A stretch of DNA of 64,000 nt from Ktedonobacterales bacterium (GCA_030167145.1 CP126532.1:1857052-1921051), one strand, 5' to 3'; shown: positions 1,679-59,953, numbered from the stretch's first letter. The notes: generated by a model not told the origin, from the sequence alone. Translations and numbers: made by a program.

Positions 1679-1837
1679 GGCGGCGGCCTCCTCGCGGTGT
1701 GGACGCGCTCGTATGCAGGCGCGGTGGAATGGGAGTTGCGCGTGTATCGTGCGGGCATTATAGCATATGGGGCGGCGATGCGCGCTCTCGGCCATGATGC
1801 ACTTTTGCCAATTGATAGGGACACGCGCTCGATCTCT

Positions 1838-11015: not shown

Positions 11016-11025
11016 AGCGGTATTT

Positions 11026-33018: not shown

Positions 33019-34728
33019 TCAGGCATCCACGGCGTAGAGGTAGCTGTCACCTGAGCCGATATAGACCACATTGCCCGCTATGGTCGGTGCGGCGTAGACA
33101 GCGTTGTCCGCTTGGAAGCGCCAGCGCTGCGCGCCCGTGGTTGCATCGAATGCATAGACATAGCCGTCAAACGAGCCGGCATAGACGGCGCCATTAGCCG
33201 CCGCGGGCGCGCTCACAGCGCCGCCCGCCTGGAAACGCCAGATCTGTACGCCGGTCATCGCATCTACGGCGTAGAGGTAGTAGTCTTCGGAGCCGACATA
33301 AGCAGCGCCGTTCGCGACGGCGGGAGCGCTCACAATGTCACCCGTTTTGAAGCGCCAAAGTTGTGTACCCTTCACCGCATCCACCGCGTAGAGGTAATGA
33401 TCCTTTGAGCTGACATAAACCACGTCATTCGCCACCGCCAAAGATGAAGACGCGATGGCGCCGCCCGTTTTGAAGCGCCAGAGTTGCGTACCTTTTGTCG
33501 CGTCCACCGCGTAGAGATAGTGATCAAACGAGCCGACATAGACCACGCCATTCGCCACTATTGGCGAGGCGAAAACAACGTCACCCGTTTTGAAGCGCCA
33601 AAGTTGGTTGCCAGTTTTCGCGTCCACGGCATAGAGATAGTGATCAAACGAGCCAGCATAAACGATGCCGTTCACCACAGATGGAGAGGAGACCGCATTG
33701 TTGTTGGTTTGGAAGGTCCAAATCTGTGCCCCCGTGTTGGCGTCCACGGCGTAGAGATAGCCATCTGTTGAGCTAAAATAGAGAATGCCATCCACAACCA
33801 TTGGCGAGGAGTTCACAGGGCCACCTGTCTGGATACGCCATAGCTGTGTACCTGCACTCGCATCCACAGCATACAGATAGTGGTCATTTGAGCCGACATA
33901 GATCACGTCATACGCCACTGCGGGCGAGGAGTCCACAATGCCGCCCGTCTGGAAGCGCCAGCGCAGGTTACCCGGAATCGGAATCGGGGTTGAAGTCGGA
34001 GTGGGCGCGAGCGTCGCTGTGGGCATGGGCGTAGGTGTGGGTGTGCGGGACAACTGCGTGTGCGCTGAAATCACATCATGTGATGCAACCAGCCAGGCTG
34101 AGCTTCCAATGGTCGCCAGGGCAGCCAAACTCACTCCGGTCCGTATGAGTAGCTTGCGTCTCGACACGACTGGCATGGGAGGCGTCGGATGAGAAGCAGG
34201 ATACGGGCTGGATGTTGGGGTTGGCTGTATATGCCACGTCGGAGACGAAACCGAGGGCGTCAACGGCATCGGGGGTGGAGGCGTGTTCGGCGTAAGGGGT
34301 TTCGGATCTATCAAGGTAGGGGTCTGCGTGGCGCTTACGGCAGCGACAATACTATCTATGATCTGCTCAAAGGGTATCGCTAACGCATCAATCCAGAAGA
34401 AGGCGCTGAGCATCGGTGGCACTGTGCATGGACCGATGCGCACCGGCAGGAGCAGGCGCGTCGGATCATCCGGCATCAAGCCAAGCGCGGTCTGTATTTC
34501 GAGCTTGACCCAGAAGGAGTCGAGCGCATGCTGCGTCAGTAGCACAATGAAGGTTGGGCGCTGCTGGATCTCCCGCTCAATCATTGCGCCAAGTATCTGC
34601 CCGTTCTGCGCATTGTTTCGGTCGTACCATACATCGAGGCTACGTGCCCGCAGCGCCGCCACATACCGGTCGCACAGCTCATTATCGGCGTGCGAATGGC
34701 TCACGAAAACGGCGTGCGTAGTGTCCAT
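33019..34728 (-). CDS. TIR domain - transmembrane - PQQ-like beta-propeller repeat protein
   Basis: ATG at 34728 (MDTTHAVFVSHSHADNEL...DVWYD...FWVKLE) gives the TIR domain. A Pro-rich linker follows, then one TM helix (LLIRTGVSLAALATIGSSAWLV). Next comes a Thr/Pro linker and about nine repeats of YLYAVDAxxGxQLWRFKTGG. Confidence 0.8.
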   Translation of the reverse strand: MDTTHAVFVSHSHADNELCDRYVAALRARSLDVWYDRNNAQNGQILGAMIEREIQQRPTFIVLLTQHALDSFWVKLEIQTALGLMPDDPTRLLLPVRIGPCTVPPMLSAFFWIDALAIPFEQIIDSIVAAVSATQTPTLIDPKPLTPNTPPPPMPLTPSVSSPTWHIQPTPTSSPYPASHPTPPMPVVSRRKLLIRTGVSLAALATIGSSAWLVASHDVISAHTQLSRTPTPTPMPTATLAPTPTSTPIPIPGNLRWRFQTGGIVDSSPAVAYDVIYVGSNDHYLYAVDASAGTQLWRIQTGGPVNSSPMVVDGILYFSSTDGYLYAVDANTGAQIWTFQTNNNAVSSPSVVNGIVYAGSFDHYLYAVDAKTGNQLWRFKTGDVVFASPIVANGVVYVGSFDHYLYAVDATKGTQLWRFKTGGAIASSSLAVANDVVYVSSKDHYLYAVDAVKGTQLWRFKTGDIVSAPAVANGAAYVGSEDYYLYAVDAMTGVQIWRFQAGGAVSAPAAANGAVYAGSFDGYVYAFDATTGAQRWRFQADNAVYAAPTIAGNVVYIGSGDSYLYAVDA

Positions 34729-34996
34729 TTCGCGCTTTCCCCTACACGGCACACACACGTGCAACACGCTCATTCGCTCTCCACGTGGAGCGCACGCTGC
34801 GTCTGTATCGTGCGAGCATTGTAGCACGGACCGTCTAGCGGCGCACGCCGGAGAGCGCACGGCGTGCGCCCCTACGGATGGGGTGGCAGGCAGACAGGAA
34901 GGGCCGCCTCGCCAGCGAGCGAGGGCAGACAGGAAGATCTACCCTACCGCCGAGGCCGGCGGGACGCCGGCGGTACAACGGATGCAGCGGCGAGCG

Positions 34997-47385: not shown

Positions 47386-47451
47386 GGTGGTGTCCTGGTG
47401 TTAGAATGAGCGCAATCCAGTGATCTAGAGGGGGAAGGTTGGAGCCTTCGG

Positions 47452-47478
47452 CGGCCCTGTATAGGGCCGTTTTTGTTT
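47452..47478 (+). terminator. Plus-strand rho-independent terminator inside the BREX operon gap
   Basis: CGGCCCT, loop GTAT, AGGGCCG, followed by TTTTTGTTT on the plus strand, which is antisense to the operon. Confidence 0.5.
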
Positions 47479-47496
47479 ATGCGAGTTGTGACTGAT

Positions 47497-47928
47497 CTAG
47501 GGAATGTACCAGCCTCTACGCGAGCGGCGGCCTTTGCCATATTGCGCTGGGATGCCGATGCCTAGCTCGTCTTCGGTGCGGTGCGTGCGGTGGGTGCGGG
47601 TAATGTTGGTGTCGCGGTATTCGGTCTCCCAGTCGTGGTGTTTGTGGCGCGGTCGGTCAGGCTTTTTGCGCGTGCGCTTCGCCGGTGGTCGTGGCTGGGC
47701 GGGACGGGTGAACCAGTCGGTGATGCCTCGCGCGGGCTTGGTTTCGAGTCCGGCGGGCGTGGGCAGCCCAGGGCCGGTCACGTAGTAGAAGCAGTGTGTG
47801 CCTTTCGCTGGCTGCTGCCGGAGCTTGTCCGCGTGGGTGGTGGCTTCGGCGAGCGTCTTGAAGCTGGCGGCTAGCTTATGCTGGTCCCCGATGCGGCGGT
47901 AGACCGAGTATTTGCTCATGGTACCCAT
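47497..47928 (-). CDS. Small basic hypothetical protein inserted between the two pglX halves
   Basis: RBS GGAGAGGA precedes ATGGGTACCATG. 143 aa. The structured-looking N-terminal ~55 aa are followed by a strongly basic tail (KRTRKKPDRPRHKHH...GKGRRSRRGW). Confidence 0.6.
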   Translation of the reverse strand: MGTMSKYSVYRRIGDQHKLAASFKTLAEATTHADKLRQQPAKGTHCFYYVTGPGLPTPAGLETKPARGITDWFTRPAQPRPPAKRTRKKPDRPRHKHHDWETEYRDTNITRTHRTHRTEDELGIGIPAQYGKGRRSRRGWYIP

Positions 47929-47997
47929 CCTCTCCGCGAGTTCAAGGGCGAACGTCTGTCGCGATCATGCCAACAGTATGAGTATGGCGACGATAGT

Positions 47998-50358
47998 TCA
48001 TGGGTTTTTCTCCAGAACGTAGGCGGCGGTTTCGACCATGGCGGTATCGAGGACGCCGTAGCCGAGGTCGGCGAGGGCGATGGGGCGGGCTTCGGTGAGC
48101 AGGATGTCTTCGCGCCACTTCTGGAACGAGGTGAGGAAGAAGCCGGTGCGCGAGGTAATGGCGCCGAGGCGTCCGCTGGGTTCGAGCAGGGCGAGGCCGC
48201 GTTCGACGAAGGCGGCGTAAAGATCATTTTTGGTGCGGGGATAGGTTTTCTCGATGTAGGGCTTGGCGGGGGCGCTGGGTTCGCCGAACGGGGGATTCAT
48301 CAGTACGACGCTGTAGCACTTCTCCAGCAGTTCGATGAGCGCGAAGCCACGGGCGGCGTCCTCGGCGAAGAGGTGGCGAGTGTAGTCGTCGTCGCTGGTG
48401 GTGGCGTCTTCGGCAAAGCGGCGCAAGGCGGCGAGGACGCGCGGCTCGGCCTCGGTTTCGTAGAAGCGCGCGTCGGAGACACCTTCGTAGTTGAGCGTCT
48501 GCTGTTGTGGTGGCTGCCCCTGCGCGAAGAGGGTAAGCTGGACGTTGCCACCGCCGGTTCTGATCCACTCGCGTTTGGCGTTGGCGATCTCCTGGCGCAG
48601 GGCGACCTCGACCTGGAGCAGCGAGCCAGCCTCACCGGCGAGGCGCATCTCACCCCATATATCGCGGACAAAGGGGTCGAGCGCGGGCGGATCGAGGGTC
48701 TTGGTGAAGGCGTCGAGCAGGTCACGCTCGCCGGGCATTGGCTCGGCATAGACGAGATTGGCGCGGCGGATGGGCGGGCGCTGGTCGCGCGGGAGGCTGA
48801 GCGCGGCGTATTCGCGCTGGGCGCGCAGCCAGAGGGCGAGCGCGGCGATCTGGACGGCGCGGAGGTCAATATCTACGCCGTGCAGGTTGTGGCGTAAGAT
48901 CAGGGCGGGAACGGCGGCTTGATACGCGGGGAAGTCGCTGGCGAACTCGCTCTGGAGCGCGGGGCCGAGGTCATCATCTGCCCAGGCTTCGTGATAGATG
49001 CGCACGAGCAGGTCGAAGCAGTAGAGCAGGAAGTGGCCGCTGCCGCAGGCGGGATCAAGGATACGTAGTTCGCGGGGGTCGCGCTTGGCGCGATGGGGGA
49101 TGATTTCGACTTCGCGATTCCACGCCTCGCAGATGGCGCGATGGAGTGCCCGCCAGTAGTCCAGGTCTTTGCCCTCTGGCGTCTCGCCGAAGTGATGCCA
49201 GCGGCGCTGCTCAAAGAAGAGACAGAGGCGTAGCTCTTCGAAGCTGCCGTTGATATTGCCCGTCTCGACGTATTCTTGCTGCTTGTCGTTCGCAATGGAA
49301 GCGACCATATCGAAATCGCGCGCTTCCGCAGATGTATCGTGCGCCAGGTGTGTCTGGGCGTAGGCATAGCCGTCTACCGTGAGCGCATAGCGCATTATGG
49401 CGTCAACAGAGGTTGCGGCGGGATTGGGGCGGGTCCACAGCTCTCCACCACCCTCGCCCGGCATCACCCACGCGTCCTGTTCGGCATTGAACATGAGCGG
49501 CTCGTGCTGACCACGGCGCAGCCAGATGGGGTGTGGGGTGATGAGCATCGTTTCACAGAGGGTGGCGAGGCTGGTGTGGCCGTGGGTCATCTCCCACCAG
49601 AGGCGCCCAAGCGTGTTATCTGCCAGGAATTCGACGACGTAGCGCGGGGTGTAGAACTGATTGCGGAAGGCTAACTCGTAGCTGTTGCGCGGGGCCTGGC
49701 TGGCTTTGCGCGCCTCGTCGCGTAGCTCTTTGGGGGTGAAGTACTGGTAAATCCAGCCGATGGTCTCGTCGGCGTCCCAGACGCTGGCTAGCTCGGCATC
49801 GTTGAGGAGGGCGAGCACGTCTTCGAGCACGCGCTGTGGCGGGAAGAGCCGGTTGGCGGGGTCGTGCGGCGAGAAGAGGGCGGGCAGCTCGCTGGCCAGG
49901 GTCTGCCCAGTCCATTCGAGGAAGTGGCGATAGGCGAGATCCTGGCGGCCAGCGGACCAGAGGGTTTCTTCGCCGGGATTGTCGGCGAGATAGAACTTGA
50001 AGCCGTTGCTGTTGAGGCTACGGGAGACGGTCTCGCGGATGAGCTTGCGGCGTTCGAGCAGCTTGTAGGCGCAGAGGCGATTGAGATGCGTGAAGGCGAC
50101 TTCGCGGATAAGCTGAGCGACGGCATCGTGCGCGGAGAAGCGGCGGGCGCCGAGGTGGGCGAGATACCGCACGACCTGCGCGCGATAGGCGAGGTCGGCG
50201 GGGGAGAGGTGGGCCATGCGCGCGGCTGGCTCGACTGCGCCGTGGCGGTGGATGCCAAACTGGCCTTCGAGTAGCTCGGCGACGGTGTCTTCGAGCAGCT
50301 TGCGGCACTGTGTGACGGCGAGGCGCAGGGTGTTGCGGATAGATTTATCGAGTGTCAT
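47998..50358 (-). CDS. pglX: PglX-like N6-adenine methyltransferase, N-terminal half of the split second paralog
   Basis: N-terminal helical domain (REVAFTHLNRLCAYKLLERRKLI; DETIGWIYQYF). MTase motif I is ILDPACGSGHFLLYCFD and motif IV is VLMNPPFGEPS. It ends right after the MTase core (AAYVLEKNP*). Confidence 0.85.
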   Translation of the reverse strand: MTLDKSIRNTLRLAVTQCRKLLEDTVAELLEGQFGIHRHGAVEPAARMAHLSPADLAYRAQVVRYLAHLGARRFSAHDAVAQLIREVAFTHLNRLCAYKLLERRKLIRETVSRSLNSNGFKFYLADNPGEETLWSAGRQDLAYRHFLEWTGQTLASELPALFSPHDPANRLFPPQRVLEDVLALLNDAELASVWDADETIGWIYQYFTPKELRDEARKASQAPRNSYELAFRNQFYTPRYVVEFLADNTLGRLWWEMTHGHTSLATLCETMLITPHPIWLRRGQHEPLMFNAEQDAWVMPGEGGGELWTRPNPAATSVDAIMRYALTVDGYAYAQTHLAHDTSAEARDFDMVASIANDKQQEYVETGNINGSFEELRLCLFFEQRRWHHFGETPEGKDLDYWRALHRAICEAWNREVEIIPHRAKRDPRELRILDPACGSGHFLLYCFDLLVRIYHEAWADDDLGPALQSEFASDFPAYQAAVPALILRHNLHGVDIDLRAVQIAALALWLRAQREYAALSLPRDQRPPIRRANLVYAEPMPGERDLLDAFTKTLDPPALDPFVRDIWGEMRLAGEAGSLLQVEVALRQEIANAKREWIRTGGGNVQLTLFAQGQPPQQQTLNYEGVSDARFYETEAEPRVLAALRRFAEDATTSDDDYTRHLFAEDAARGFALIELLEKCYSVVLMNPPFGEPSAPAKPYIEKTYPRTKNDLYAAFVERGLALLEPSGRLGAITSRTGFFLTSFQKWREDILLTEARPIALADLGYGVLDTAMVETAAYVLEKNP

Positions 50359-51170
50359 CAGGAAACACCCCTCAGCGTGACGACGAGGTCGGCGTGTTGG
50401 GCGTGTTCGGCCACGAGTTCATCGAGGGCGAGGCAGATGTGCTTGATGGTATCCACGGATTGCGTGGCCCAGGAATAGCTGATCTCCTGCACCTTGCCGT
50501 CGGGGCTGGCTTGTGCGCGGTCGGCGCGGTGGACGATGTCGTTGCGGCGGCGAGTGGTTTCGTCAATGACGCTCATCAGCTCTTTCTTGTCGCGCTGGAG
50601 CTTGGCGGCGATCTGATCCCAGGGCTTTTCGAGGCTGAGCAGCGCGCCGACAACATGCACACCCTTGCGCGAACTGAGGTATTTGAAGGAGGTCTGCGCG
50701 AGGATGCGGTTGGCGATGAAGAGCGGGGCGTCGGGATCGCCGAGCAGCCGGAGGGTCTCGGAGAGCGAGAAGGTGAGGTCTTTGAAATACTCTTCGATGC
50801 TGGGATCGGGTGGCAGGAAGTCGCGCCCGCGCGCGGCGATCACCTGGGGGAGATTGGCGCGGAGCACGGATGGCAAGTAGGCGTCGAGTGCGGTGCAAGC
50901 GGCGACGACCGATTGGCGCAGCAGGTTGGCGAGCGACTGGCGTCGCAGGGCGCTCTTGGGGATCTGGGCGCTCTCGCGGACGAGGCCGACGAAGATCTCG
51001 TTGTAGATCAGCATCAGGTCTTCGTCGTGCTGGGCATGGACGATGCCGGCCAGCGCGGTGACCAGCTCGCCATCGGTCTGGATGGTCTGGCAGTCGAGCA
51101 GGCGGTAGACGCGCAGCAGCAGTTCGGCGGGGCGCATGGTGTCTTCGAATACCTGGCGTGGACTCGTCAC
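50358..51170 (-). CDS. HEPN-like (RiboL-PSP-type) protein embedded in the BREX operon
   Basis: Alpha-helical 270 aa protein with an Rx4H motif (ETTRRRNDIVHRAD) in the C-terminal third. Its stop overlaps the pglX-N start (TGATG). It lies 23 nt downstream of brxC. Confidence 0.65.
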   Translation of the reverse strand: MTSPRQVFEDTMRPAELLLRVYRLLDCQTIQTDGELVTALAGIVHAQHDEDLMLIYNEIFVGLVRESAQIPKSALRRQSLANLLRQSVVAACTALDAYLPSVLRANLPQVIAARGRDFLPPDPSIEEYFKDLTFSLSETLRLLGDPDAPLFIANRILAQTSFKYLSSRKGVHVVGALLSLEKPWDQIAAKLQRDKKELMSVIDETTRRRNDIVHRADRAQASPDGKVQEISYSWATQSVDTIKHICLALDELVAEHAQHADLVVTLRGVS

Positions 51171-51193
51171 GTGTGGCCCTCCTTCTCCTTGTC

Positions 51194-54100
51194 CTATTCG
51201 ACGATGATGCTGGCGCCCTGGGCGAGCAGCTTGAACAGTTCGTCGCGGAGCTTGTCGAGCGCGGCGTTCACGGCGGCTTCGGTGTCCAGGGAGTCGGGAA
51301 AGAATTCGGCGGCGCGCACGTGCGAGATGGCGCTCTGGCCGCGCTCCGCCGTATCGGGCGCAAGGGTCAGCTCCTGGATGCGCGCGAGCGCCTGGGATTT
51401 GAGGCCAGCGAGGGCGAGCAGGTCGGATTCGATTTGGCTGAGCGTCGCGTGGCAGTGCGGGCAGACGCTGGCCGTATCGTCGAGATGAAGACCTTCGATG
51501 CAGGCGCGCTGGGTCAGGGGATCGAGCAGCGCCGGACGGGAGGCTTCGGGCACATTGGGCCAGTTGGCGCTGCCCTTGATCGCGTCAATCGCGGCATCGA
51601 AGTGACTGTGCCGTTTCGCGTGCAGCCCCTCGTAGACATCGGCGTAGGCGGCGGCGAGCGCGCGGGTCATGTCGCGCAGGTGGGGCAAGCGCTCGTAGAG
51701 CGTGCTGTCACCGAGGATGTGCTGTATTTCCGCGGCTTTGTCGTCCAGCCCGTCGGTTGCGCCACGGGCTTGCAGGATGGGCCATTGCTGGTCGAGGACA
51801 CGCCGGGCGTCGCGGACGGTGGCGACGATGTGCTGCTCGGTCAGCGCTTCGCGGATGCGCCGGGCCTGGGCGCGCAGCTCTTTGAGGGAGGTGCTTTCGC
51901 CGGCGAGGGTGCGCACGCAATCGTCTGAGGCGGCGTTCTGGATGGCGGTGAGGGACTGGTAGTAGTCGTCGAGCAGGTCCATGCCGGGGAGGTCGTTGGC
52001 GCGGACCTCGGCGCGGGCGGGCAGCAGGAGCGCAATCTCCGCGTTGGCCAGCTTCTTCAGGCTTTCGGCGATGGCGCCTTCTTCGACATCCACCTCATCG
52101 CCGGTGAGGGTCTCGAAGCCACGCACGGCGGCGGTGAGGGTGCGCAAATCAATAGATTCGCGCGGGGTGAACGAGGCGCTGCGGAAGGCGGGGTTGGAGG
52201 TGAGCGGAGTGCGGCAGAGTGGGTCTTGCGCGTTGCGGTAGCGCCGGCCCTGATAGGTCACCTCGACGGCGCCCGCGCGCAGCAGCAGCGCCAGCACCAG
52301 CTTGATGACGTCGAGTTCCCAGCCGTAGGAAAGGCCGGTGAAGTGGGCCTCCAGCTCTTTGCCGGTGACGCGGTTGCCGTAGGAGTGCTCTTTCTTGAGA
52401 TAGTCGAGCACCTCTTTGGCGATCTCGGCGTGGACATGGGGGACGAACTTCGCGCCCTCTTTGGTGACGAGGTTGAGGCCGTGCTCGCCACCGTAGAATA
52501 CTTGCGGGAGCGCGTTGAGGTTGGCGGCTTTGAGCACTTCGTCGGCTTCGTTGCCAGTGAGGCCGGGGCGAGCGCCCATCTCGAGCTTGGGATAGAGGTC
52601 GGGGACGACGGCGTTGAAGAGATTTCGGAAGATTTCGGCGAGCGATCTGCCGAGGTCGGAGGCGTCTTTGGAGATGCCGCGAAAGATGCTCTGGCCGCGT
52701 GCGAGCGCCGCCTCCAGCTTCTCGCGCAGGCGACTCTGGTAGCGCGCTTGCTCGCGTTTCTCGGCATCGAGGAGGGGGGTAAGCTCGGCGGCACGCTCGC
52801 CCTGCGCGCCCGCCTGGCTATATTTGGCGATCATCTGGCTGGAGGCATGCACCTGATTGATCAAGGTGTCTAACTCGGCATCCAGGGCGAAGATCCAGTA
52901 GATGTCGTTGGTGTGGTCGCCCATGCGGCTCTCGCTGCGGGCGTCTTCCAACCGGCTGGCAAGCTCGGTCGGCGCGTCGGCGACGCGGAGGGTGAGCGGA
53001 ATATCGCCCGTCGCAAGGCGCACGTCGTCCATGGTCAGTCCGACCTTGAAGGTGCGCTTGAGCGGGTGCTGGTAGGTGAGCAGTTTTTGGTCGGAGAAGA
53101 TTTTTAGCAGGGACTCGCGTTGAATCTCGTTGCGCTCGCGGGGTTTGGGTTCGAGATACTGCTTGCGCTCGGTATCCCAGTTCTTCTCCTGGGCGGTGAG
53201 CAGTTTCCAGCCTTCTTCGGTATGGCGGACGAACTGCGCTTGCTCCAACCTGCGGATCGCCGCTTGTACCTGCGGCAGCGGCGCGGACGCGCCCACCTGA
53301 TCCACCAGCACGGCGGCGACGTTGGCGTCGGTGCGAGGCAGGTCGCGCACGAATTCGAGCAGGCAGAGCGCCTTGGCGACGCGGGCGGCCCAGCCGGCAT
53401 CGTCGCGGTCACTCTTGAAGCGTTCGGTGATGTCGCTGATGTCTTTCTGCTTCTCAGACGAGAGACTGCCCTCGACCAGCTCGTAGATCAGATCGAGGGT
53501 GACGAGCCGCCCGACGGGCTGCCGCGCGAGATCGGTGCGCGGCGCGGTGAGCATGGAGTGCGCTTGTTTGATGATGGTGCGGTTGCTGCCGCTGATGTGG
53601 CGCGGCGCGCCGGGTTGGGAGCGGATGCCAGTCATGATATCTATCGAGAGGTCAATGTAGTGCGGCAGGTAGGGGTAGAAGCGCACGAAGTCGTCTTCGC
53701 GCACCTCACTCTTGCGGCTGGTGCGCTCCAGATGGCAGGAGGTGTTGAGCTGGCCCTGCGCCTGGGCGAAGATCTGGCGCAGTTCGGGGACGGCGCTGGG
53801 CTTCTTATCGAGCACGCGCTTGGTGGCGACTTCGCTGATGTCGGCGGGGGTGAGGTCCACGCGATGGCGGAAGCGGTCCTGCACCATGGCGAGCTGCACG
53901 CGGCGCGAGTCGAGGGCGGAGACGACTTCTTCGAGTTTCTCCTGGCTGGTGACGATGATCCAGATGGGGGCGATGGCCTGGCGGGCGCGGATGCGGTTCT
54001 TGCTCTCCTGGCCGAAGTGTTCGACCACGGCGCGCAGATCGTTGAGCTTGTCGGCGCTCTGCGAGACATACTGGCCCACTTCGTCTACGATGAAGGTGAG

Positions 54101-54862
54101 CGCTTTGCCGGGGCGGCGGCGCGCCATTAGCTCGAAGGCGCGATCCACCAGCTTTTTCGTGTTGATGTCTGCGGTACGCCCAGCCAGTGACCGCGCCCAA
54201 GAGTCGGCGGCGGGGTAGGTGCGTGGGTCGAGTTCGTGCAGCGCGGCACTGGCGCGATTCAGCTTCGTTGCGCCAGTGCGGACAACCTCCCAGGGTGGGC
54301 CGCCGTGCGCCTGAGCACAGGCGACGAATGCGTCGAGCTGGCCATCGCGCTCAAGCTCAATTTCTAGCTCGGCGATATCGAAGTCTTCGGCGTAACCCAG
54401 CGAGCGCAAGAGCTGGGCGTAGAGAAGCTCAGTGATGCGCTCGTTATTGGTACGTGCGGAACGCTCGACCATGACATCGAACATGATGACTTCGGTGGGG
54501 ATGCGCGCGGTGATGAAGTCTACCAGTTGCGAGATGGCGGGGTCGTCAAGCTGCTGCTTAAAGAGGTCGGCGGCGCGGTGGCCGAGCACGGTGCGATTGG
54601 CGAGGACGTAGCCGAGGTTTTTGGCGAAGGAGGATTTGCCGGAGCCGAAGAAGCCAGAGATCCAGATGCCGACGCCTTCGGTGAGATCGGTGGGCGCGTC
54701 GGCCATGGCTTTGAGCAATCCGTGATAGTGTTCGCGGATGCGTTTGGTGGCGACGTATTCGGTGAGTTCACTGTAGACGGTCTTTTCGTCTTCCTGGGTC
54801 ACCTTGATGATTTCTTCGATGTGCTGGTTCAGGTCGCGGCTGAGCAGGTCTTGTATGTGCAT
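51194..54862 (-). CDS. brxC: BREX P-loop ATPase BrxC/PglY
   Basis: 1222 aa. Walker A is GIWISGFFGSGKSSFAKNLGYVL and Walker B-like is LTFIVDEVGQY. Size and position are typical of BrxC. Confidence 0.9.
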   Translation of the reverse strand: MHIQDLLSRDLNQHIEEIIKVTQEDEKTVYSELTEYVATKRIREHYHGLLKAMADAPTDLTEGVGIWISGFFGSGKSSFAKNLGYVLANRTVLGHRAADLFKQQLDDPAISQLVDFITARIPTEVIMFDVMVERSARTNNERITELLYAQLLRSLGYAEDFDIAELEIELERDGQLDAFVACAQAHGGPPWEVVRTGATKLNRASAALHELDPRTYPAADSWARSLAGRTADINTKKLVDRAFELMARRRPGKALTFIVDEVGQYVSQSADKLNDLRAVVEHFGQESKNRIRARQAIAPIWIIVTSQEKLEEVVSALDSRRVQLAMVQDRFRHRVDLTPADISEVATKRVLDKKPSAVPELRQIFAQAQGQLNTSCHLERTSRKSEVREDDFVRFYPYLPHYIDLSIDIMTGIRSQPGAPRHISGSNRTIIKQAHSMLTAPRTDLARQPVGRLVTLDLIYELVEGSLSSEKQKDISDITERFKSDRDDAGWAARVAKALCLLEFVRDLPRTDANVAAVLVDQVGASAPLPQVQAAIRRLEQAQFVRHTEEGWKLLTAQEKNWDTERKQYLEPKPRERNEIQRESLLKIFSDQKLLTYQHPLKRTFKVGLTMDDVRLATGDIPLTLRVADAPTELASRLEDARSESRMGDHTNDIYWIFALDAELDTLINQVHASSQMIAKYSQAGAQGERAAELTPLLDAEKREQARYQSRLREKLEAALARGQSIFRGISKDASDLGRSLAEIFRNLFNAVVPDLYPKLEMGARPGLTGNEADEVLKAANLNALPQVFYGGEHGLNLVTKEGAKFVPHVHAEIAKEVLDYLKKEHSYGNRVTGKELEAHFTGLSYGWELDVIKLVLALLLRAGAVEVTYQGRRYRNAQDPLCRTPLTSNPAFRSASFTPRESIDLRTLTAAVRGFETLTGDEVDVEEGAIAESLKKLANAEIALLLPARAEVRANDLPGMDLLDDYYQSLTAIQNAASDDCVRTLAGESTSLKELRAQARRIREALTEQHIVATVRDARRVLDQQWPILQARGATDGLDDKAAEIQHILGDSTLYERLPHLRDMTRALAAAYADVYEGLHAKRHSHFDAAIDAIKGSANWPNVPEASRPALLDPLTQRACIEGLHLDDTASVCPHCHATLSQIESDLLALAGLKSQALARIQELTLAPDTAERGQSAISHVRAAEFFPDSLDTEAAVNAALDKLRDELFKLLAQGASIIVE

Positions 54863-54863
54863 A

Positions 54864-55085
54864 CCTATCCCCCTGGCCCCCTTCCCTACGAGGGAAGGGG
54901 GGAATGTACCTATCCCCCTGGCCCCCTTCCCTACGAGGGAAGGGGGAAGACGGACCTATCCCCCTGGCCCCCTTCCCTACGAGGGAAGGGGGGAATGTAC
55001 CTATCCCCCTGGCCCCCTTCCCTACGAGGGAAGGGGGAAGACGGACCTATCCCCCTGGCCCCCTTCCCTACGAGGGAAGGGGGAA
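54864..55085. repeat. Tandem array of five GGKG-family palindromic elements (45/46 bp units alternating)
   Basis: CCTATCCCCCTGGCCCCCTTCCCTACGAGGGAAGGGGG(GAATGTA/AAGACGGA) x5 fills the whole gap between the DUF559 stop (55089) and the brxC ATG (54862). The last unit supplies the GGGGGA Shine-Dalgarno of brxC. Confidence 0.9.
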
Positions 55086-55088
55086 GTG

Positions 55089-55487
55089 TTAGTGTGCGGC
55101 GTCGGGCGCTGGTGGCGCTGATGTCCGACAGGCGGCGGCGATGCGTGCGAGAACGCTGGGCAGATCGCGCTGGATGTCGTGATTGGATATGCGCAGCACG
55201 CGCAATCCATGGCCGACGAGCACTTGATCTCTCTCTGTATCATACTCCACCTGCTCGTTGTGAATGCTACCATCCACTTCGACGACAAGTGCGGCTGCGT
55301 GACAGTAGAAATCCACGATAAATCCGGCGATCACTTGCTGACGCCGGAAGTGAAGCCCTTGCAAGCGATTCGCGCGCAGCCAGTGCCAGAGCAGTTCTTC
55401 CTCCTCAGTCATCGCCGCCCGAAATGCCCTGGCTTGTTCCACCTTCACTGGCGCCACTCGCTGTCCACGGACGATCTTTCGTGCCAT
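55089..55487 (-). CDS. DUF559 (Vsr/restriction-endonuclease-fold) domain protein
   Basis: LWHWLRANRLQGLHFRRQQVIAGFIVDFYCHAAALVVEVDGSIHNEQVEYDTERDQVLVGHGLRVLRISNHDI is the typical DUF559 core. Confidence 0.85.
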   Translation of the reverse strand: MARKIVRGQRVAPVKVEQARAFRAAMTEEEELLWHWLRANRLQGLHFRRQQVIAGFIVDFYCHAAALVVEVDGSIHNEQVEYDTERDQVLVGHGLRVLRISNHDIQRDLPSVLARIAAACRTSAPPAPDAAH

Positions 55488-55597
55488 ATCGCTGTATTCC
55501 TCTCTTATACTGCCCTTATACCGCCCTTATACCGCCCTTATACTGGATGGTCTTGACCTGTTTGGACTAGCGCATCGCAGCCTGTATCGGGATGCGC

Positions 55598-58500
55598 TCA
55601 CCTCTCCTCCCCCTTCCCTCCCAGGGAAGGGGGCTGGGGGGTTAGGTCCGTCTCCCCCTTCCCTCCCAGGGAAGGGGGCTGGGGGGTTAGGTCCGTCTCC
55701 CCCTTCCCTCCTAGGGAAGGGGGCTGGGGGGTTAGGTCCGTCTCCCCCTTCCCTCCTAGGGAAGGGGGCTGGGGGGTTAGGTTCTGCGCGATGGCGTAGC
55801 TCTGGTTCGCGCGGCAAGCGGCGAGGACGCGGTCGGGCCAGTAGCGCATGGCGGTGCGGGACCAGTCGTAGTCGCCGCGCTCCAGCGCCTGCCAGCATTG
55901 CCGGGGTTCGGTGGACCAGGCGGGCATGAGGGTATGAAGCGGGGCGAGGTTGATGAGGATGCCGTCGTCTAGCTCTGGCGCCCAGCCGGTCGTCTCGCCG
56001 CGCGCGTTGGGCTGGGTGGTGACGGCGGCGAGGGCTTTGTCGAAGGCTTCGAGGTCGTTGAGGGTGGATTCGAGCGCTTCGAGGGCGCGTTCGGCGCGGC
56101 GGCGCTCGGCGCCCTGGGGCAGCGCGGGCAGGCGCTGGCGCTGCTCGGCGATGTCGCGCCGGACGGAGGCGATGCGGCCGCCCAGGTAACGGCTGCCGCG
56201 CAGCAGGTGCAGGGTGTCGCGGGTGACGCATTCGGCGAAGAGGTAGACGCCGTAGCCGCGCTTGGGCGATTGCAGCAACCAGTAGATGGGGCGCTTACGA
56301 TAGCGTTTGTGGTGGTCTTTGAAGAAGTCTTTGGCGAGCCAGTCGTGCAGCGGGCGCCCGCCAGTGGCGGTGGCGAGCAGGCCCTCGACCTTATCGTCGC
56401 CGAGCAGGACTTCGAGCACGTGGGTGACGCGGGCGGCGAGGTCGTCGGGGTGGCCAGGATCGAGTACGGCGATGGGGGACCCCTCCCCCAGCCCCTCCCC
56501 CACAGGGAGAGGGGAGTTGAGAGTGAGGGGGGTAATGGCGAGGCTGGCGGCTGGGGGTGTGCCATCGGGCGCAGGGAGCGGTGCGACGCCGTTGCCAAGC
56601 GCGCCAAGGATGCCGGGGGAGAAGCGACCGAGGGCGATGCCGACGGCGTAGCTGACCCAGCGCGCGGCGAGGGATGACCTATCCCCCCCGGCCCCCCTTC
56701 CCTGGGAGGGAAGGGGGGAGAGAGAGGCATGCGCGCCGTTTGCGCAAGATTCGCCATCTGCGCTATTGATGGCATCCGCGTCCGCGTCCGCTTCTTCGTA
56801 TTTCTCCGCGTCACGATCATCGCCAGCCAGCGCCGCCGCCTCGTCTTCCTCCTCCCCCTCACGCGCCCCACCTGCTAGCGCCGCCGCCACCTCGTCTTCC
56901 TCCTCCCCCTTCCCTCCCAGGGAAGGGGGCTGGGGGGATAGGTCCGCTTCGATGGCGGCGCGGTCTGCGGGGCTGATGTCGTAGAGGCGGTAGACTTCTT
57001 CGTTTATTTCGCGCTCGATGGCGGCGAGCTCGGCGTGACGGGCGGCGACGCGGGCCAGACCATCGGGCCAGGCGGGCGGGGCGACGAACTCGTAGGTGGT
57101 CTCGTCTTCGGCGCTGTCGGCGCGGGCGAGGGCTATCGCCCGCTCGACGAGGCCGCGCAGGGTGTCGCTGGACACGGTGGGGATGGGGAGACGCTTCAGA
57201 TCGCCCAGGTAAAAGTGAAACGTTGGATTCAGCACCGCAAGTAAGTGATTAGCAACTGACGAGTTCAATATGCCAAGCAGCTTATATAAAATGCTGCTCT
57301 GCTCAGAGAAAATACAGTTGCCTGCATGATCAAAGAGAAAGCCAGCAGGCATGTAGCGTATGCTTAAACCTTTGGATGTGAGATCAGTGAAAGTCAGTCC
57401 TTGGTGGAAATAGAGTTGTCTGCTTGGAAGTTTGTTGCCTCTTTCGGAAAGAATGCGGAAGTGGGGCAAGTCGTAAGCAATTACAAATTCTTGGTTACCC
57501 CACCAGCGTCGGAACTCACCGCCCTTCATATGTGGAAACCACCGCTTCCCTGTGTACCAGGCTTCCTCGGCAGATGTGCAACCGAATCCAATACTAGAAA
57601 TGCCTACCTCCCACCAGAATCGCAAGAAACGCGAATTTCCTGATGTTGCCAGCCCTTGTCGCGGATTAGCACTATTGACAAGTTTAGGCAAATTAGCGAA
57701 GAGTGATCGTAGAGACGGGGTTATTTGGTAGACCCAGGGGGAGCCGGGGATGGCATCGAAGTCGCGCTGGCGGTAGGCGTAGACGGCGGGGTCGGTTGCG
57801 CCAGCCTGGAAGGCGGCGACGGCACGCTCGAAGCCACGGCGCTTGGCTTCGGCGTCGGGTTCGCGGACGAGGCGGATATACCTGCCGGTGGCGTGGTCGC
57901 GGCGGGCGGCGTCGGGTTCGGCGCGGAGGACGAAGAGGGTAGTGTTGACTATCTCGCCGTCGATCTCGGCAAAGGCGCGCGGGCCGACGTGGATCATCGT
58001 TTCGATGGCGGTCAGGTGGCGCAGCTTGTCGCGCAGCGCTTCGTAGCTGCTGATGAACATGAACGACTGCTGTGTAATCATCGCCAGCCGTCCGCCGGAG
58101 GCGAGCATCTGTGCGCAGCGGTCAATGAACGCGGCGTAGAGGTTGTCTTCGGATGCTGGAAATTCCACTTCCAGATATTTGCGCATGGTGGCTGACATGT
58201 TGTCGCTACCCATATAAGGCGGGTTGGCGGCGACGACATCGTAGCGGCGGAGCATCACGTCGAGCAGGCGCATGCCCTTGACGGCTTCGCCGGCGAAGTA
58301 GGCCTGGTCTATGCCTTCGCGGGCCTGCTGGCGGGCGAATTCGTCGAAGGCCTGGACGATCTGCGCTTCGAGGATGCCCCAGTATTCGTCGTCGTCGGCG
58401 TCTTCTTCGAAGAGCGTGCGCAGCTCGGGGAAGGGCAGGCGCCCCTGGCCTTCGAGGCGGAAACGCTGGCGTTCGGCCAGGATGATGGCGCGAATCTCGT

Positions 58501-59953
58501 CTTCGAGCCGCAGCAGCGAGCCAAGCTGGTTGGCGTCGCGCAGGCGCTGCCAGACGGCGCGAATCACGCGCTCGTAGATCGGGCGCGAGAACTTCGCCGT
58601 GTCAATAAACGCATCCAGACGCTTGCCGTTGAGCAGCAGCACATCGGCGCAGGCGAGGTTGCTGTGGCGGATGGTGACGTGAGGGTTAAGCGCGGCGGCT
58701 TTGAGATAGAGCGTCAGCGCGGAGAGCTGCACGGCGCGCAGGTCAATATCTATGCCGAAGAGGTTGTGCTCGACGATGGCGGCGGGAATCTCACTGGCGT
58801 CGGGCACGGGTGGCGTCGCGGGCCAGCCTGGCTCACCGGCGCGCTCGATCTCCTCCTGATACATCGCCGCGAAGAGATCGAAGGCGACCAACCCAAAGTG
58901 CATCGTGCCGCAGGCCGGATCCAGCAGCGTCATCTCCCGCACCGACCTCATTCCCTCTCCCCCCTTCCCTCCTAGGGAAGGGGGGCTGGGGGGGTTAGGT
59001 TCCGCTCCCCCCTTCCCTCCTAGGGAAGGGGGGCTGGGGGGGTTAGGTTCCGCTCCCTCCTTCCCTCCCAGGGAAGGGGGGCTGGGGGGGTTAGGTTCCG
59101 GGACGAGCGAGGTGAGGGAGTCGCGCAGGCGGCTGTCGGGGTGCATCTGGAGCCAGAGGCGGCCAAGGGAGTTTTCGACCAGCGCGCGGACAATCCAGCG
59201 CGGGGTGAAGAGTTGGGTTGCGGCGGGAATCTCGCTGGCGGTGATCTTCGCGCCTTTGTTCAGCCGGGCAAAGACCTCGGCTTTCTCCTGCTCGTTGAAA
59301 TACTGATAGATCCAGCCGATGGTTTCGTCGTCGGCCCAGGCGGGGGCAACGTCGGCGGCGTTGACCAGCGCGAGCAGGCTGGCGAGGGCGCGGGGGCGCG
59401 GGCAGAGGCGGCTGGGGAGGTCGGTGGGGTCGAAGAGCGCGCGAATCTGGCTGGCCATGGCGGCGCAGAGGTGCAGCAGGTAGTGGCGATAGGCGGTGTC
59501 GCGCGGGCCTTCGCCGAGGGCATCGAGCGGCAGCGAGCCAGATTCATAGCGGGCGTAGTCGTCTTCGTGGCCCGGCTCGGTGAGCCAGAGCATGAAGCCG
59601 CCGGACTGCTGGCCCTTGCCGACGCTGGCCTTGATGAGCTTGCGGGCTTCGAGCATCTTGAACGCGGAGACGCGGTTGAGCCAGGTGTAGGCGACCTCTT
59701 TGGTGAGCTTGGCGACGGCCTCGCGCGGGGTGAGTCCGGCGGTCTTTTCGTCGGCCAGCAGACGTTCTAAGCGGGCACGGGTGTCGCGGGCGTCGGATAG
59801 CTGCTGGATGGCGGGGAGGGTATCGGCTGGCTCGAAGCGGCCATCGCGATGCAGGCCATAGACGCCTTCGAGGAGGTCGGTTGTCTCGGTGGTGAGCAGG
59901 TGGCGGGCGTCGAGGGTGAGGTCGTGCAGGCGGGTGCGGAGCGTACTTTCCAT
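55598..59953 (-). CDS. pglX: Full-length PglX-like N6-adenine methyltransferase located between brxB and brxC
   Basis: ATG at 59953 (MESTLRTRLHDL); the longer ORF to 60520 overlaps brxB and is discounted. KEVAYTWLNRVSAFKMLEARKLI, DETIGWIYQYF. Motif I is LLDPACGTMHFGL and motif IV is VAANPPYMGSD. C-terminal KRPIYWLLQSPKRGY. It contains at least 9 in-frame palindromic element copies. Confidence 0.85.
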   Translation of the reverse strand: MESTLRTRLHDLTLDARHLLTTETTDLLEGVYGLHRDGRFEPADTLPAIQQLSDARDTRARLERLLADEKTAGLTPREAVAKLTKEVAYTWLNRVSAFKMLEARKLIKASVGKGQQSGGFMLWLTEPGHEDDYARYESGSLPLDALGEGPRDTAYRHYLLHLCAAMASQIRALFDPTDLPSRLCPRPRALASLLALVNAADVAPAWADDETIGWIYQYFNEQEKAEVFARLNKGAKITASEIPAATQLFTPRWIVRALVENSLGRLWLQMHPDSRLRDSLTSLVPEPNPPSPPSLGGKEGAEPNPPSPPSLGGKGGAEPNPPSPPSLGGKGGEGMRSVREMTLLDPACGTMHFGLVAFDLFAAMYQEEIERAGEPGWPATPPVPDASEIPAAIVEHNLFGIDIDLRAVQLSALTLYLKAAALNPHVTIRHSNLACADVLLLNGKRLDAFIDTAKFSRPIYERVIRAVWQRLRDANQLGSLLRLEDEIRAIILAERQRFRLEGQGRLPFPELRTLFEEDADDDEYWGILEAQIVQAFDEFARQQAREGIDQAYFAGEAVKGMRLLDVMLRRYDVVAANPPYMGSDNMSATMRKYLEVEFPASEDNLYAAFIDRCAQMLASGGRLAMITQQSFMFISSYEALRDKLRHLTAIETMIHVGPRAFAEIDGEIVNTTLFVLRAEPDAARRDHATGRYIRLVREPDAEAKRRGFERAVAAFQAGATDPAVYAYRQRDFDAIPGSPWVYQITPSLRSLFANLPKLVNSANPRQGLATSGNSRFLRFWWEVGISSIGFGCTSAEEAWYTGKRWFPHMKGGEFRRWWGNQEFVIAYDLPHFRILSERGNKLPSRQLYFHQGLTFTDLTSKGLSIRYMPAGFLFDHAGNCIFSEQSSILYKLLGILNSSVANHLLAVLNPTFHFYLGDLKRLPIPTVSSDTLRGLVERAIALARADSAEDETTYEFVAPPAWPDGLARVAARHAELAAIEREINEEVYRLYDISPADRAAIEADLSPQPPSLGGKGEEEDEVAAALAGGAREGEEEDEAAALAGDDRDAEKYEEADADADAINSADGESCANGAHASLSPLPSQGRGAGGDRSSLAARWVSYAVGIALGRFSPGILGALGNGVAPLPAPDGTPPAASLAITPLTLNSPLPVGEGLGEGSPIAVLDPGHPDDLAARVTHVLEVLLGDDKVEGLLATATGGRPLHDWLAKDFFKDHHKRYRKRPIYWLLQSPKRGYGVYLFAECVTRDTLHLLRGSRYLGGRIASVRRDIAEQRQRLPALPQGAERRRAERALEALESTLNDLEAFDKALAAVTTQPNARGETTGWAPELDDGILINLAPLHTLMPAWSTEPRQCWQALERGDYDWSRTAMRYWPDRVLAACRANQSYAIAQNLTPQPPSLGGKGETDLTPQPPSLGGKGETDLTPQPPSLGGKGETDLTPQPPSLGGKGEER
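55603..55782. repeat. Tandem array of four GGKG-family elements (45 bp units), inverted relative to 54864-55085
   Basis: TCTCCCCCTTCCCTCC(C/T)AGGGAAGGGGGCTGGGGGGTTAGGTCCG x4. It is read in-frame as the C-terminal tail of pglX (LTPQPPSLGGKGETD x4). Confidence 0.9.
56678..56720. repeat. Palindromic element (GGKG family), single copy, in-frame in pglX
   Basis: CCTATCCCCCCCGGCCCCCCTTCCCTGGGAGGGAAGGGGGGAG, translated as SPLPSQGRGAGGDR. A related but distinct palindrome CCCCTCCCCCACAGGGAGAGGGG lies at 56475-56516. Confidence 0.85.
56905..56945. repeat. Palindromic element (GGKG family), single copy, in-frame in pglX
   Basis: CCCCCTTCCCTCCCAGGGAAGGGGGCTGGGGGGATAGGTCC, translated as LSPQPPSLGGKGEEE. 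Confidence 0.85.
58955..59100. repeat. Tandem array of three GGKG-family elements (48 bp units), in-frame in pglX just upstream of MTase motif I
   Basis: CTCCCCCCTTCCCTCCTAGGGAAGGGGGGCTGGGGGGGTTAGGTTCCG x3, translated as PNPPSPPSLGGKGGAE x3. Confidence 0.9.

Follow-up and report, generated by a model that had tools for sequence, protein, structure and literature searches.

A DUF559 gene lies between inverted hairpin arrays in a BREX operon

We analyzed 64,000 nucleotides (nt) of DNA from a Ktedonobacterales bacterium (GCA_030167145.1, CP126532.1:1857052-1921051), hereafter called the window, with positions counted from its first letter. Within it, a small gene encoding a DUF559 protein is bracketed by two inverted arrays of a short hairpin repeat and stands inside an operon of the bacteriophage exclusion (BREX) system. 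We refer to the gene together with its two arrays (54863-55782) as the cassette. The surrounding locus is a type 1 BREX locus on the minus strand (40476-61432), in which brxA, brxB, brxC, pglX, pglZ, and brxL are all present, as assigned by Pfam and PADLOC. The order of the genes is atypical and reads brxA-brxB-pglX1-DUF559-brxC-HEPN-pglX2(split)-pglZ-brxL. The coordinates of the cassette, its parts, and the neighboring features are collected in Table 1.

The array downstream of DUF559 starts 3 to 6 nt from the TAA of the gene. Its units begin at 54863, 54908, 54954, 54999, and 55045, with a period of 45/46 nt, and the array as a whole can be described as a 91-nt dimer present 2.4 times with 100% identity. 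In the coding-strand direction, a unit consists of a hairpin followed by CCAGGGGGATAGGT, which on the plus strand reads ACCTATCCCCCTGG-CCCCCTTCCCT-ACG-AGGGAAGGGGG plus a linker. The coding-strand unit of the upstream array is composed of ACCTAACCCCCCAG, the hairpin CCCCCTTCCCT-nnn-AGGGAAGGGGG, and AGACGG. Thus, the order along the coding strand is four copies of ACCTAACCCCCCAG plus hairpin, a leader, DUF559, and five copies of hairpin plus CCAGGGGGATAGGT, so that the outermost sequences form inverted termini. The arrays are mutually reverse-complementary, with arms of up to 159 nt and 72-90% complementarity, and the longest exact run common to both is 13 nt. Every unit of the two arrays combines a C-rich block, ACCTAWCCCCC, with an 11-bp pyrimidine/purine hairpin of -13 to -14 kcal/mol (folded as DNA). 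The palindrome core CCCTTCCCTnnnAGGGAAGGG was found 16 times in the window as compared to 0 times in 100 shuffles, and all 16 copies are located within 45962-59078. Folded as RNA, the arrays reached -152 kcal/mol (z = -4.8). Within the upstream array, units 1 and 2 are distinguished from units 3 and 4 by a C/T difference in the loop alone (CCC versus CCT).

The leader between the upstream array and the DUF559 ATG carries an 11-nt repeat, CTTATACCGCC, which is present 3.6 times at 55504-55543 and nowhere else in the window. Three 11-nt repeats TATAAGGGCGG at 55510-55542 (minus strand) each contain a TATAAG box and lie just 5' of the Shine-Dalgarno-like sequence of DUF559. These TATAAG repeats may represent the cassette's own -10 region. 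A TATA-containing stretch between element and ATG was also seen in several other loci read by eye. A promoter scan of the locus detected no sigma-70 consensus promoter, and a terminator scan of the locus detected no intrinsic-terminator-like site or T-tract terminator. An Rfam scan of 54-60 kb at E<=1 returned only chance matches to microRNAs and small RNAs, far under the gathering scores.

Both arrays extend into the signals of the adjacent BREX genes. The upstream array is translated as (T)DLTPQPPSLGGKGE four times, followed by ER and the TGA at 55598-55600, and makes up the ~60 terminal codons of pglX-1. At the other end, the last unit of the downstream array terminates on the coding strand with ...GGGGGATAGGT, immediately 5' of the brxC ATG (54862-54860), and contributes a GGGGGA Shine-Dalgarno-like run 5 nt 5' of this ATG. 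These results bear out a description that had been made from the sequence alone (hereafter the sequence-only reading). It had placed DUF559 between inverted 5-unit and 4-unit arrays, whose coordinates are slightly corrected here to 54863-55086 and ~55603-55782, and had noted the 11-nt repeats in the spacer upstream of the gene. It had also assigned the brxC Shine-Dalgarno sequence to the downstream array and the last ~60 codons and stop context of pglX to the upstream one. The window brxC begins with MHIQDLL right after the array, and the annotated start in the nearest relative (L161, 12570-12590) lies five codons earlier (MQIATMHIKDLL). Either the insertion deleted the first codons of brxC or the real start in the relative is the second ATG.

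Units of the repeat also occur inside both pglX genes (Table 1), at sites beyond those that the sequence-only reading had described. All element-encoded segments of PglX-1, including the 48-amino acid internal array and the 60-amino acid tail, are missing from six of six PglX homologues (alignment A3), and the linker solo units are likewise missing from these six proteins. Thus, the solo units in pglX-1, the gene covered by this comparison, are lineage-specific in-frame insertions. The periods of the arrays within coding sequence are 45 and 48 nt, both multiples of 3, as compared to 45/46 nt (91-nt dimer) in the intergenic array, which is consistent with selection for reading frame. Together with the near identity of the units, these periods point to very recent tandem amplification under reading-frame constraint.

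Table 1. Features of the cassette and the flanking BREX genes in the window.
Feature	Position	Strand	Description
brxA	61432-60614	-	Assigned by Pfam/PADLOC
pglX-1	55598-59953	-	BREX methyltransferase, 1451 aa; ~150 aa of element-encoded insertions
In-frame array in pglX-1	58957-59100	-	Three 48-nt units; translated EPNPPSPPSLGGK(E/G)GA three times; gap in 6/6 PglX homologues
Solo unit, forward, in pglX-1	56900-56944	-	DLSPQPPSLGGKGEEE; variable acidic linker
Solo unit, reverse, in pglX-1	56677-56729	-	LSPLPSQGRGAGGDRS
Solo unit, second hairpin type, in pglX-1	56478-56520	-	CTCCCCTCTCCC-TGT-GGGGGAGGGG-CT-GGGGGAGGGGTC; peptide SPLPVGEGLGEGS
Array upstream of DUF559 (left end of cassette)	~55603-55782	-	Four 45-nt units, 99% identity; covariance model R1 match 55599-55783
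Leader, array to DUF559 ATG	55488-55602	-	115 nt; pglX-1 TGA (55598-55600), small hairpin, 11-nt repeats, GAGAGGAA Shine-Dalgarno-like run
DUF559 gene	55089-55487	-	132 aa; Pfam PF04480, E=1e-33
Array downstream of DUF559 (right end of cassette)	54863-55086	-	Five 45/46-nt units; covariance model R1 match 54862-55114
brxC	51194-54862	-	Start codon adjoins last repeat unit
Solo unit in C-terminal half of pglX-2	47242-47285	+	PPFPRREGGLGGLG
Solo unit in C-terminal half of pglX-2	45946-45990	+	PPSLAGKGAGGLG

Hairpin elements are linked to DUF559 genes in at least seven phyla

To place the cassette among its relatives, we used a set of loci that comprised the window and 159 further DUF559 loci (39-64% identity), obtained from one-genome-per-species and Joint Genome Institute (JGI) metagenome scans with the DUF559 protein. 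A hairpin was scored when a perfect pyrimidine/purine stem of at least 8 bp was located within 260 nt of the gene. Such hairpins were found upstream of DUF559 in 109 of the 143 testable loci and downstream in 58 of 137, against a background of 52 in 823 kb, which corresponds to 0.017 per 270 nt. Complete two-hairpin elements showed the same concentration, with 106 located at most 500 nt from DUF559 and 11 farther off. The core CCCTTCCCT..AGGGAAGGG adjoins DUF559 in seven phyla, and the core CCCTTCCCTnnnAGGGAAGGG adjoins the gene in Chloroflexota, Cyanobacteriota (Nostocales), Bipolaricaulota, Latescibacterota, Fraserbacteria, a deltaproteobacterium, and Spirochaetota. Thus, DUF559 and the hairpin elements are physically linked in at least seven phyla.

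The element typically ends 12-60 nt before the ATG, and at the 3' side of the open reading frame (ORF), an additional complete or half copy is often present, either overlapping the end of the ORF or located beyond it. In many related loci, the flanking elements are arranged as direct repeats or are present on the upstream side only. Some genomes (L014, L026, and L004) contain many solitary elements. The 159 other DUF559 loci were all free of BREX genes. At many of the homologous loci, the frame of DUF559 continues into the downstream element, resulting in tails such as ...DLTP and ...PFPAREGG, and element-encoded tails of this kind add 10-40 residues to some annotated homologues (alignment A4). 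In Neisseria gonorrhoeae (L167, 1970-2737), weak matches of the element model with a spacing of 281 nt are located 3' of the gonococcal DUF559 gene, and no clear inverted repeat flanks the gene at this locus.

Predicted structure of the element

The usual element is 80-130 nt long and consists of GACCTAACCCCC, hairpin 1 (CCCCTTCCCT/AGGGAAGGGG), hairpin 2 (CCCCTCTCC/GGAGAGGGG), and GGGGGAGAGGTC. Its consensus fold is a three-way junction. In an alignment of 145 distinct model-aligned copies (alignment A2), which was fitted to the covariance model and includes related sequences, 95.7% of the cells were paired and 26 of the 28 pairs showed compensatory change. The number of compensated cells in this alignment was 346, as compared to 100 +/- 8 for shuffled sets and no more than 39 for slid controls. 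Judged by this model-fitted alignment, the predicted three-way-junction structure is under selection. As DNA, an 81-nt element folded with -32.4 kcal/mol (z = -4.5). Nearly all compensations were changes from C-G to U-A, and thus the 5' arm remains pyrimidine and the 3' arm purine.

The terminal block beside the hairpin repeats a mirror-symmetric G-rich motif (GGGAAGGG/GGGWTAGG; GGAGAGG; GGGGAGGGG). The pyrimidine-arm/purine-arm grammar also holds for the ends found in Deinococcus, the sequence of which is unrelated. Such a grammar of arms and terminal blocks would allow the formation of an intramolecular triplex or G-quadruplex. The correlation between arm and tail was 0.672 as compared to 0.628 +/- 0.003 in permuted sets. 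Because the core motifs GGGAAGGG, GGAGAGG, and GGGGAGGGG are themselves mirror-symmetric, mirror repetition and direct repetition are indistinguishable here, and the triplex idea stays an observation.

The DUF559 protein is a predicted Vsr-like nuclease

The DUF559 protein of the window belongs to the Vsr-like PD-(D/E)XK endonuclease family, and its sole Pfam matches are DUF559 (PF04480) and MTES_1575 REase. The DUF559 structure 3HRL in the Protein Data Bank (PDB) was matched by the window protein with E=6e-20 and by the family profile (alignment A4) with 2e-27. The same profile also matched, weakly (E=1.6e-3), the structure 3R3P ("mobile intron protein"), the catalytic domain of the homing endonuclease I-Bth0305I, which represents the closest characterized relative of DUF559. 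The putative catalytic residues are invariant across 27 homologues (alignment A4), and the family-invariant D59, E70, H76, D83, R86, D87, R99, and N102 are all kept in the window protein. With these residues in place, the window nuclease is probably active. PADLOC reported a weak match of DUF559 to a DpdF segment.

The composition of the gene is atypical of its surroundings. Its GC content at third codon positions (GC3) is 0.63 and its overall GC content is 59%, versus 0.71-0.84 and 58-67%, respectively, in the BREX genes, among which brxL is a low outlier. We also considered a connection to Dcm and Vsr, based on the presence of CCWGG in the spacer and loop and on the CCC versus CCT loops; this idea was dropped because the positions are not conserved across loci.

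Gene and element occur together in unrelated contexts

We found 168 pairs of loci with at least 80% nucleotide identity over the gene, and in 98 of them, the homology ended internally on both sides. The limits of homology in these 98 pairs were mostly located within 250 nt upstream of the gene and close to its stop codon. Near-identical units of gene plus element were found in unrelated contexts, and several metagenome-assembled genomes contained two to three copies.

The most detailed example was provided by a complete Latescibacterota chromosome (L004; OZ244937.1), with cassettes at 5923-6904 and 10569-11246. One full cassette is followed by tandem copies in which the nuclease core is internally deleted, and two more deleted copies are present after a paralogous permease gene. 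Each of the two series starts precisely at the TGA of a permease gene, and as the two FtsX-like permease genes are paralogues, the element occupies a pair of paralogous sites. Identity amounts to 73% in the permease flanks, as compared to 94-100% for the parts of the element. Each cassette copy on this chromosome is followed by one shared 54-nt spacer. A gene-less copy that kept both ends was also found at another locus (L133). More generally, a TGA overlaps the start of the element in 26 of 89 loci, and 11 of these 26 terminate an ORF of at least 80 codons, versus 5.7% in the control.

The nearest relative of the window's BREX locus (L161/L162) has the same brxA-brxB-pglX-X-brxC-271aa-pglX2 layout, in which X is an unrelated 106-amino acid ORF. 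At this syntenic locus, the covariance model detected no element, and the DUF559 gene was also absent. Its PglX is the closest homologue, with 67% identity by BLASTP and 71% in alignment A3. Thus, the unrelated contexts, the deletions that keep the ends, the copies at stop codons, the atypical GC3, and the empty syntenic locus together point to a mobile cassette. Judged by GC3, the element-free syntenic locus, and the PglX homologues without insertions, the cassette appears to be a recent arrival in its source genome.

Distant DUF559 genes in cultured bacteria carry inverted repeats of other sequence

We extended the comparison to DUF559 genes on complete replicons of cultured bacteria, which are 38-50% identical to that of the window (the loci examined include L165, L166, L168, L169, L170, and L171). 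Inverted repeats of 33-56 nt enclose these genes as well. The repeats differ in sequence from those of the window and have a common grammar of a C-run, a short spacer, and a G/C-rich pyrimidine/purine hairpin. In Deinococcus psychrotolerans (L170), repeats of 56 nt and 98% identity flank a gene located between paaD and paaZ, and in D. proteolyticus the repeats are 56 nt long and 95% identical. Deinococcus sp. NW-56 likewise has a flanked DUF559 gene, and it and D. proteolyticus carry DUF559 on opposite sides of one oxidoreductase gene of the hpa cluster. The inverted repeats of Pseudanabaena are 40 nt long and 100% identical, and DUF559 is likewise flanked in Picosynechococcus. In Sphingomonas (L171), repeats of 33 nt and 88% identity surround a gene between sufB and sufC. 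These distant insertions are thus located inside paa, hpa, and suf operons. As read from their co-variation across these sequences, nuclease clade and end sequence appear to be coupled.

Other features of the region

The two pglX genes of the window are co-oriented and 30-35% identical. pglX-2 is split into parts of 786 and 703 amino acids around a 143-amino acid ORF without family match, and a HEPN (RiboL-PSP-like) gene follows brxC. The two-pglX layout, the 271-amino acid gene, and the break after an N-terminal pglX-2 part of ~790 amino acids recur in the nearest relative (L161, 6543-20002), the locus of which stops before the C-terminal part of pglX-2 becomes readable. Outside the BREX locus, a 613-amino acid protein (33019-34860, minus strand) combines an N-terminal TIR domain with a PQQ/beta-propeller region and contains 120-nt tandem repeats at 33255-33678. 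Located ~5.6 kb past the brxL end of the BREX locus, it may represent another defense-related gene. Tandem repeats of 102/306 nt with 80-88% identity are also present at 388-1094, within the ORF at 374-1795 (minus strand).

Discussion

We consider it probable, although far from settled, that 54863-55782 represents a single member of a widespread family of compact and selfish cassettes, each consisting of a DUF559 gene and hairpin-bearing inverted ends. The cassette is not a component of BREX. The sequence-only reading had already considered a mobile cassette whose nuclease mobilizes the hairpins; its mobile part has gained the linkage of gene and element, the unrelated contexts, the end-keeping deletions, and the empty syntenic BREX locus, while mobilization by the nuclease is a step that we infer. 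The full-text literature that we searched, which excluded subscription-only articles, contained no description of an association between DUF559 and repeats, save for one enrichment table (PMC9881135).

In its anatomy, the cassette is a DUF559 gene of ~400 nt between terminal inverted repeats, each made of a C-rich block ((G)ACCTAWCCCCC) and a subterminal hairpin. In the mechanism that we propose, it would have landed between pglX-1 and brxC, overrun the pglX-1 stop, and come to abut the start of brxC. Both ends would later have been tandemly amplified, fourfold on one side and fivefold on the other, with slippage or unequal exchange taking place at their hairpins. The solo in-frame end units in both pglX genes would be non-autonomous derivatives or footprints. 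The nuclease would recognize and nick or cut its cognate hairpin-bearing ends or an element-containing target, and the cassette and its end units would spread by homing-like break-repair copying. Effects on the expression of pglX-1 or brxC would be a by-product. This scheme is suggested by the fold family of the protein, the co-variation of nuclease clade and end sequence, and the copies at paralogous sites of the Latescibacterota chromosome.

Several points weigh against the cassette being a mobile element of this kind. At the protein level, the closest empty site reaches only 67% identity, and no pair of empty and filled alleles with high identity was found. Junctions read by eye (L001-L004, L013, L034-L037, L043, and L166) showed no target-site duplication. 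The architecture varies, with the gene placed between two hairpins in some loci and 3' of a complete element in most, and in Sphingomonas, the two half-elements flank the gene in reversed order. The best relative of the window gene is 67-69% identical, and the genome and metagenome scans, whose matches did not include the source contig, contained no close paralogue; DUF559 may be single-copy in the source genome, which would suit a RAYT-like arrangement (see below) better than an active insertion sequence (IS). The family is nearly absent from viral contigs, with one distant match in 2.9 million, and thus it is not phage-borne. Moreover, hairpin cleavage by DUF559 is pure inference, and a lone PD-(D/E)XK nuclease is incapable of strand transfer, so that movement would depend on host repair.

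A broader proposal, which we regard as tentative and rate somewhat lower than an even chance, is that DUF559 proteins serve as nucleases for autonomous mobile elements that constitute a new class. Its parts would have to hold jointly. The element would be a cassette of ~0.5 kb with a Vsr-fold nuclease as its sole protein, and this nuclease would recognize structured ends with pyrimidine/purine hairpins, which possibly form a triplex or G-quadruplex. The cassette would spread by break repair into intergenic sites of operons at stop codons and would shed solo units of 42-130 nt, which would behave similarly to REP and MITE sequences (introduced below) and could enter the reading frames of proteins without disrupting them. 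In at least nine phyla, the clades of the nuclease would have evolved together with the sequences of the ends.

Of the other explanations, the one that survives best is a domesticated system similar to the REP-associated tyrosine transposases (RAYTs), which we nevertheless regard as unlikely. DUF559 would then be a single-copy, vertically kept gene that maintains genome-wide hairpins resembling repetitive extragenic palindromic (REP) sequences and their hairpin-forming doublets (REPINs), and the flanking arrays would be the counterparts of RAYT-flanking REPs. A nuclease gene that lacks a close paralogue, lies between inverted hairpin repeats, and has solo units and arrays in its vicinity agrees with this scenario, as do the many solitary elements in L014, L026, and L004. 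However, the protein is not a Y1/HUH transposase, the elements have no GTAG or CGTC tag, and in most of the 160 loci they are concentrated at the gene (106 near versus 11 far). Multiple copies in several genomes, near-identical copies in unrelated contexts, the atypical GC3, and the absence of the gene from the syntenic relative also speak against it. Finally, the presence of one element sequence across phyla implies that its descent was horizontal and not vertical.

We consider it improbable that the arrays are cis-acting RNA elements of the BREX operon, serving as an attenuator, an RNase barrier, or a translation tuner for the pglX:brxC ratio, with DUF559 being incidental. The sequence-only reading had raised a related possibility, namely that the hairpins attenuate transcription within the operon or stabilize its mRNA. 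The elements track DUF559 and not BREX in the 159 other loci, and the syntenic relative has the same operon without an element. REP sequences and bacterial interspersed mosaic elements (BIMEs) are known stabilizers of upstream mRNA and thus provide a precedent, and both the high stability of the arrays as RNA (-152 kcal/mol, z = -4.8) and the GGGGGA run that the last unit supplies 5 nt before the brxC ATG fit such a function. The arrays, however, showed neither T-tract terminators nor a match to an Rfam family in the scans described above, and copies within coding sequence in both orientations cannot be operon-level regulators. An RNA function would also leave the conserved link to DUF559 unexplained.

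The sequence-only reading had further proposed an invertible segment, and our analysis offered little to sustain it. Here, recombination between the arrays would flip the DUF559 segment and vary the C terminus of pglX-1 and the 5' untranslated region of brxC, resulting in phase variation of BREX; we consider this very improbable. The segment is indeed bracketed by inverted arrays, and PglX, BrxC, and DUF559 annotations are enriched near predicted inversion candidates (Milman et al. 2023, PMC9881135), where DUF559 is among the families enriched in predicted, unverified inversion targets. That enrichment, however, was obtained by regression over inverted-repeat features and is unverified for DUF559. 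The arms share no exact match of more than 13 nt, and neither an invertase nor a recombinase was detected in the BREX operon or the scanned flanking ORFs (window 1-33 kb was outside the scan). Because the pglX copies are co-oriented and 30-35% identical, they do not constitute a shufflon. At many homologous loci, the elements are direct repeats or upstream only, and DUF559 cassettes elsewhere are not associated with BREX.

Scarcely any weight is left for an integron-type gene cassette, in which the elements would function as attC sites and an integron integrase would move the cassette. The ends ACCTAAC/GTTAGGT match the attC motifs R'' (RYYYAAC) and R' (GTTRRRY), and the elements are structured, 60-130 nt long, and often placed as direct repeats around an ORF. 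The host phyla of the cassette also overlap the phyla known for integrons. However, most right ends read GAGAGGT or GATAGGT (the latter in the 54863-55086 array) and lack the essential GTT, and the left-end AA is unpaired in the consensus structure. The cargo is invariably DUF559, and where the context was read, the insertions are single and located in housekeeping operons rather than in cassette arrays. No tyrosine recombinase was present in the scanned window ORFs (window 1-33 kb and the 160 loci were outside the scan). We ruled the attC idea out on the basis of right-end sequence, invariant cargo, and context. A role of DUF559 as a functional accessory nuclease of BREX, suggested by its co-oriented position within the operon and the weak PADLOC match to a DpdF segment, is just as implausible and was rejected, since the nearest relative lacks the gene at its syntenic BREX locus and BREX genes are present in 0 of the 159 related loci; its codon composition is also foreign to the operon.

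DUF559 is a large domain-of-unknown-function family, and thousands of genomes contain members with the annotation "endonuclease domain-containing protein" or "very-short-patch-repair endonuclease". The linkage to repeats gives this family a testable role, that of a selfish-cassette nuclease, and defines a DNA substrate for assays. A selfish cassette of this type would extend the known repeat-plus-enzyme systems, namely REP/RAYT, IS/MITE, and homing endonuclease genes, by a nuclease-only element with a Vsr fold. It would account for G/C-rich palindromic repeats and odd peptide insertions ("PPSLGGKGE", "GEGLGER") in Chloroflexota, cyanobacterial, and other proteins, and it calls for caution in annotation, as such genes within defense islands or housekeeping operons would be passengers. 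For BREX itself, the methyltransferase appears to tolerate ~150 amino acids of repeat-encoded insertions, and a mobile repeat can supply the ribosome-binding region of brxC.

Comparison with known systems

The cassette resembles REP/REPIN-RAYT systems in that a nuclease-type gene lies between inverted copies of a short hairpin repeat, which also occurs as singletons, inverted pairs, and tandem arrays, mostly just past stop codons in operons. RAYTs, however, are Y1/HUH enzymes of the IS200/IS605 TnpA type, while the protein of the cassette is a Vsr-like PD-(D/E)XK nuclease (PF04480) with 3HRL and 3R3P as its PDB relatives. REP sequences are imperfect palindromes of 20-40 nt tagged by a conserved GTAG or CGTC tetranucleotide (PMC3733652). 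The units of the cassette are also palindromic but are headed by ACCTAWCCCCC and have neither tetranucleotide; in contrast to REPs, they combine a strict pyrimidine-arm/purine-arm hairpin with a C-rich terminal block. Moreover, one repeat sequence accompanies the gene across phyla, and in most sampled genomes the repeats are grouped around the gene and not scattered in hundreds of copies.

With integron cassettes, which comprise an ORF and attC, the cassette shares a structured element of 60-130 nt beside a small ORF and end motifs that resemble RYYYAAC/GTTRRRY. It differs from them in that most right ends lack the GTT core, the cargo does not vary, arrays of diverse cassettes are absent, and no IntI was found in the scanned window ORFs.

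The EDxHD homing endonuclease genes (I-Bth0305I, PDB 3R3P), which have a Vsr-like core, provide another parallel. In both cases, a small stand-alone nuclease gene is placed between conserved genes, here those of the suf, paa, hpa, and BREX operons. The distribution is also similarly patchy, and the gene is absent from the syntenic site of a relative, although this relative is a distant one with a PglX of only 67% identity. In contrast to homing endonuclease genes, the DUF559 cassette is not located in an intron, intein, or phage genome, and unlike the classical members, it has its own hairpin terminal inverted repeats and leaves behind solo units and internally deleted copies.

The latter traits are shared with insertion sequences and miniature inverted-repeat transposable elements (MITEs) such as Correia/NEMIS and Nezha. 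Similarly to these, the cassette has terminal inverted repeats around a single ORF, with ends of the form TGACCTAWCC...GGWTAGGTCA and 56-nt repeats of 95-98% identity in Deinococcus. It also has copies in different contexts and gene-less, internally deleted copies that retain both ends (L004 and L133). Unlike them, it encodes no DDE, HUH, serine, or tyrosine transposase, DUF559 being the sole ORF, and it measures only ~0.5 kb as a whole. No target-site duplication was seen at the junctions read by eye, and half-elements comprising one end (42-48 nt) propagate and amplify in tandem.

Last, the in-frame units recall the Rickettsia palindromic elements (RPEs), which are likewise palindromic insertions at tolerated sites of proteins; here, they amount to ~150 amino acids in PglX-1 and are absent from its homologues. 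In contrast to RPEs, the units of the cassette belong to another sequence family and other host phyla, are much shorter, form in-frame tandem arrays (45 and 48 nt), and are linked to a nuclease.

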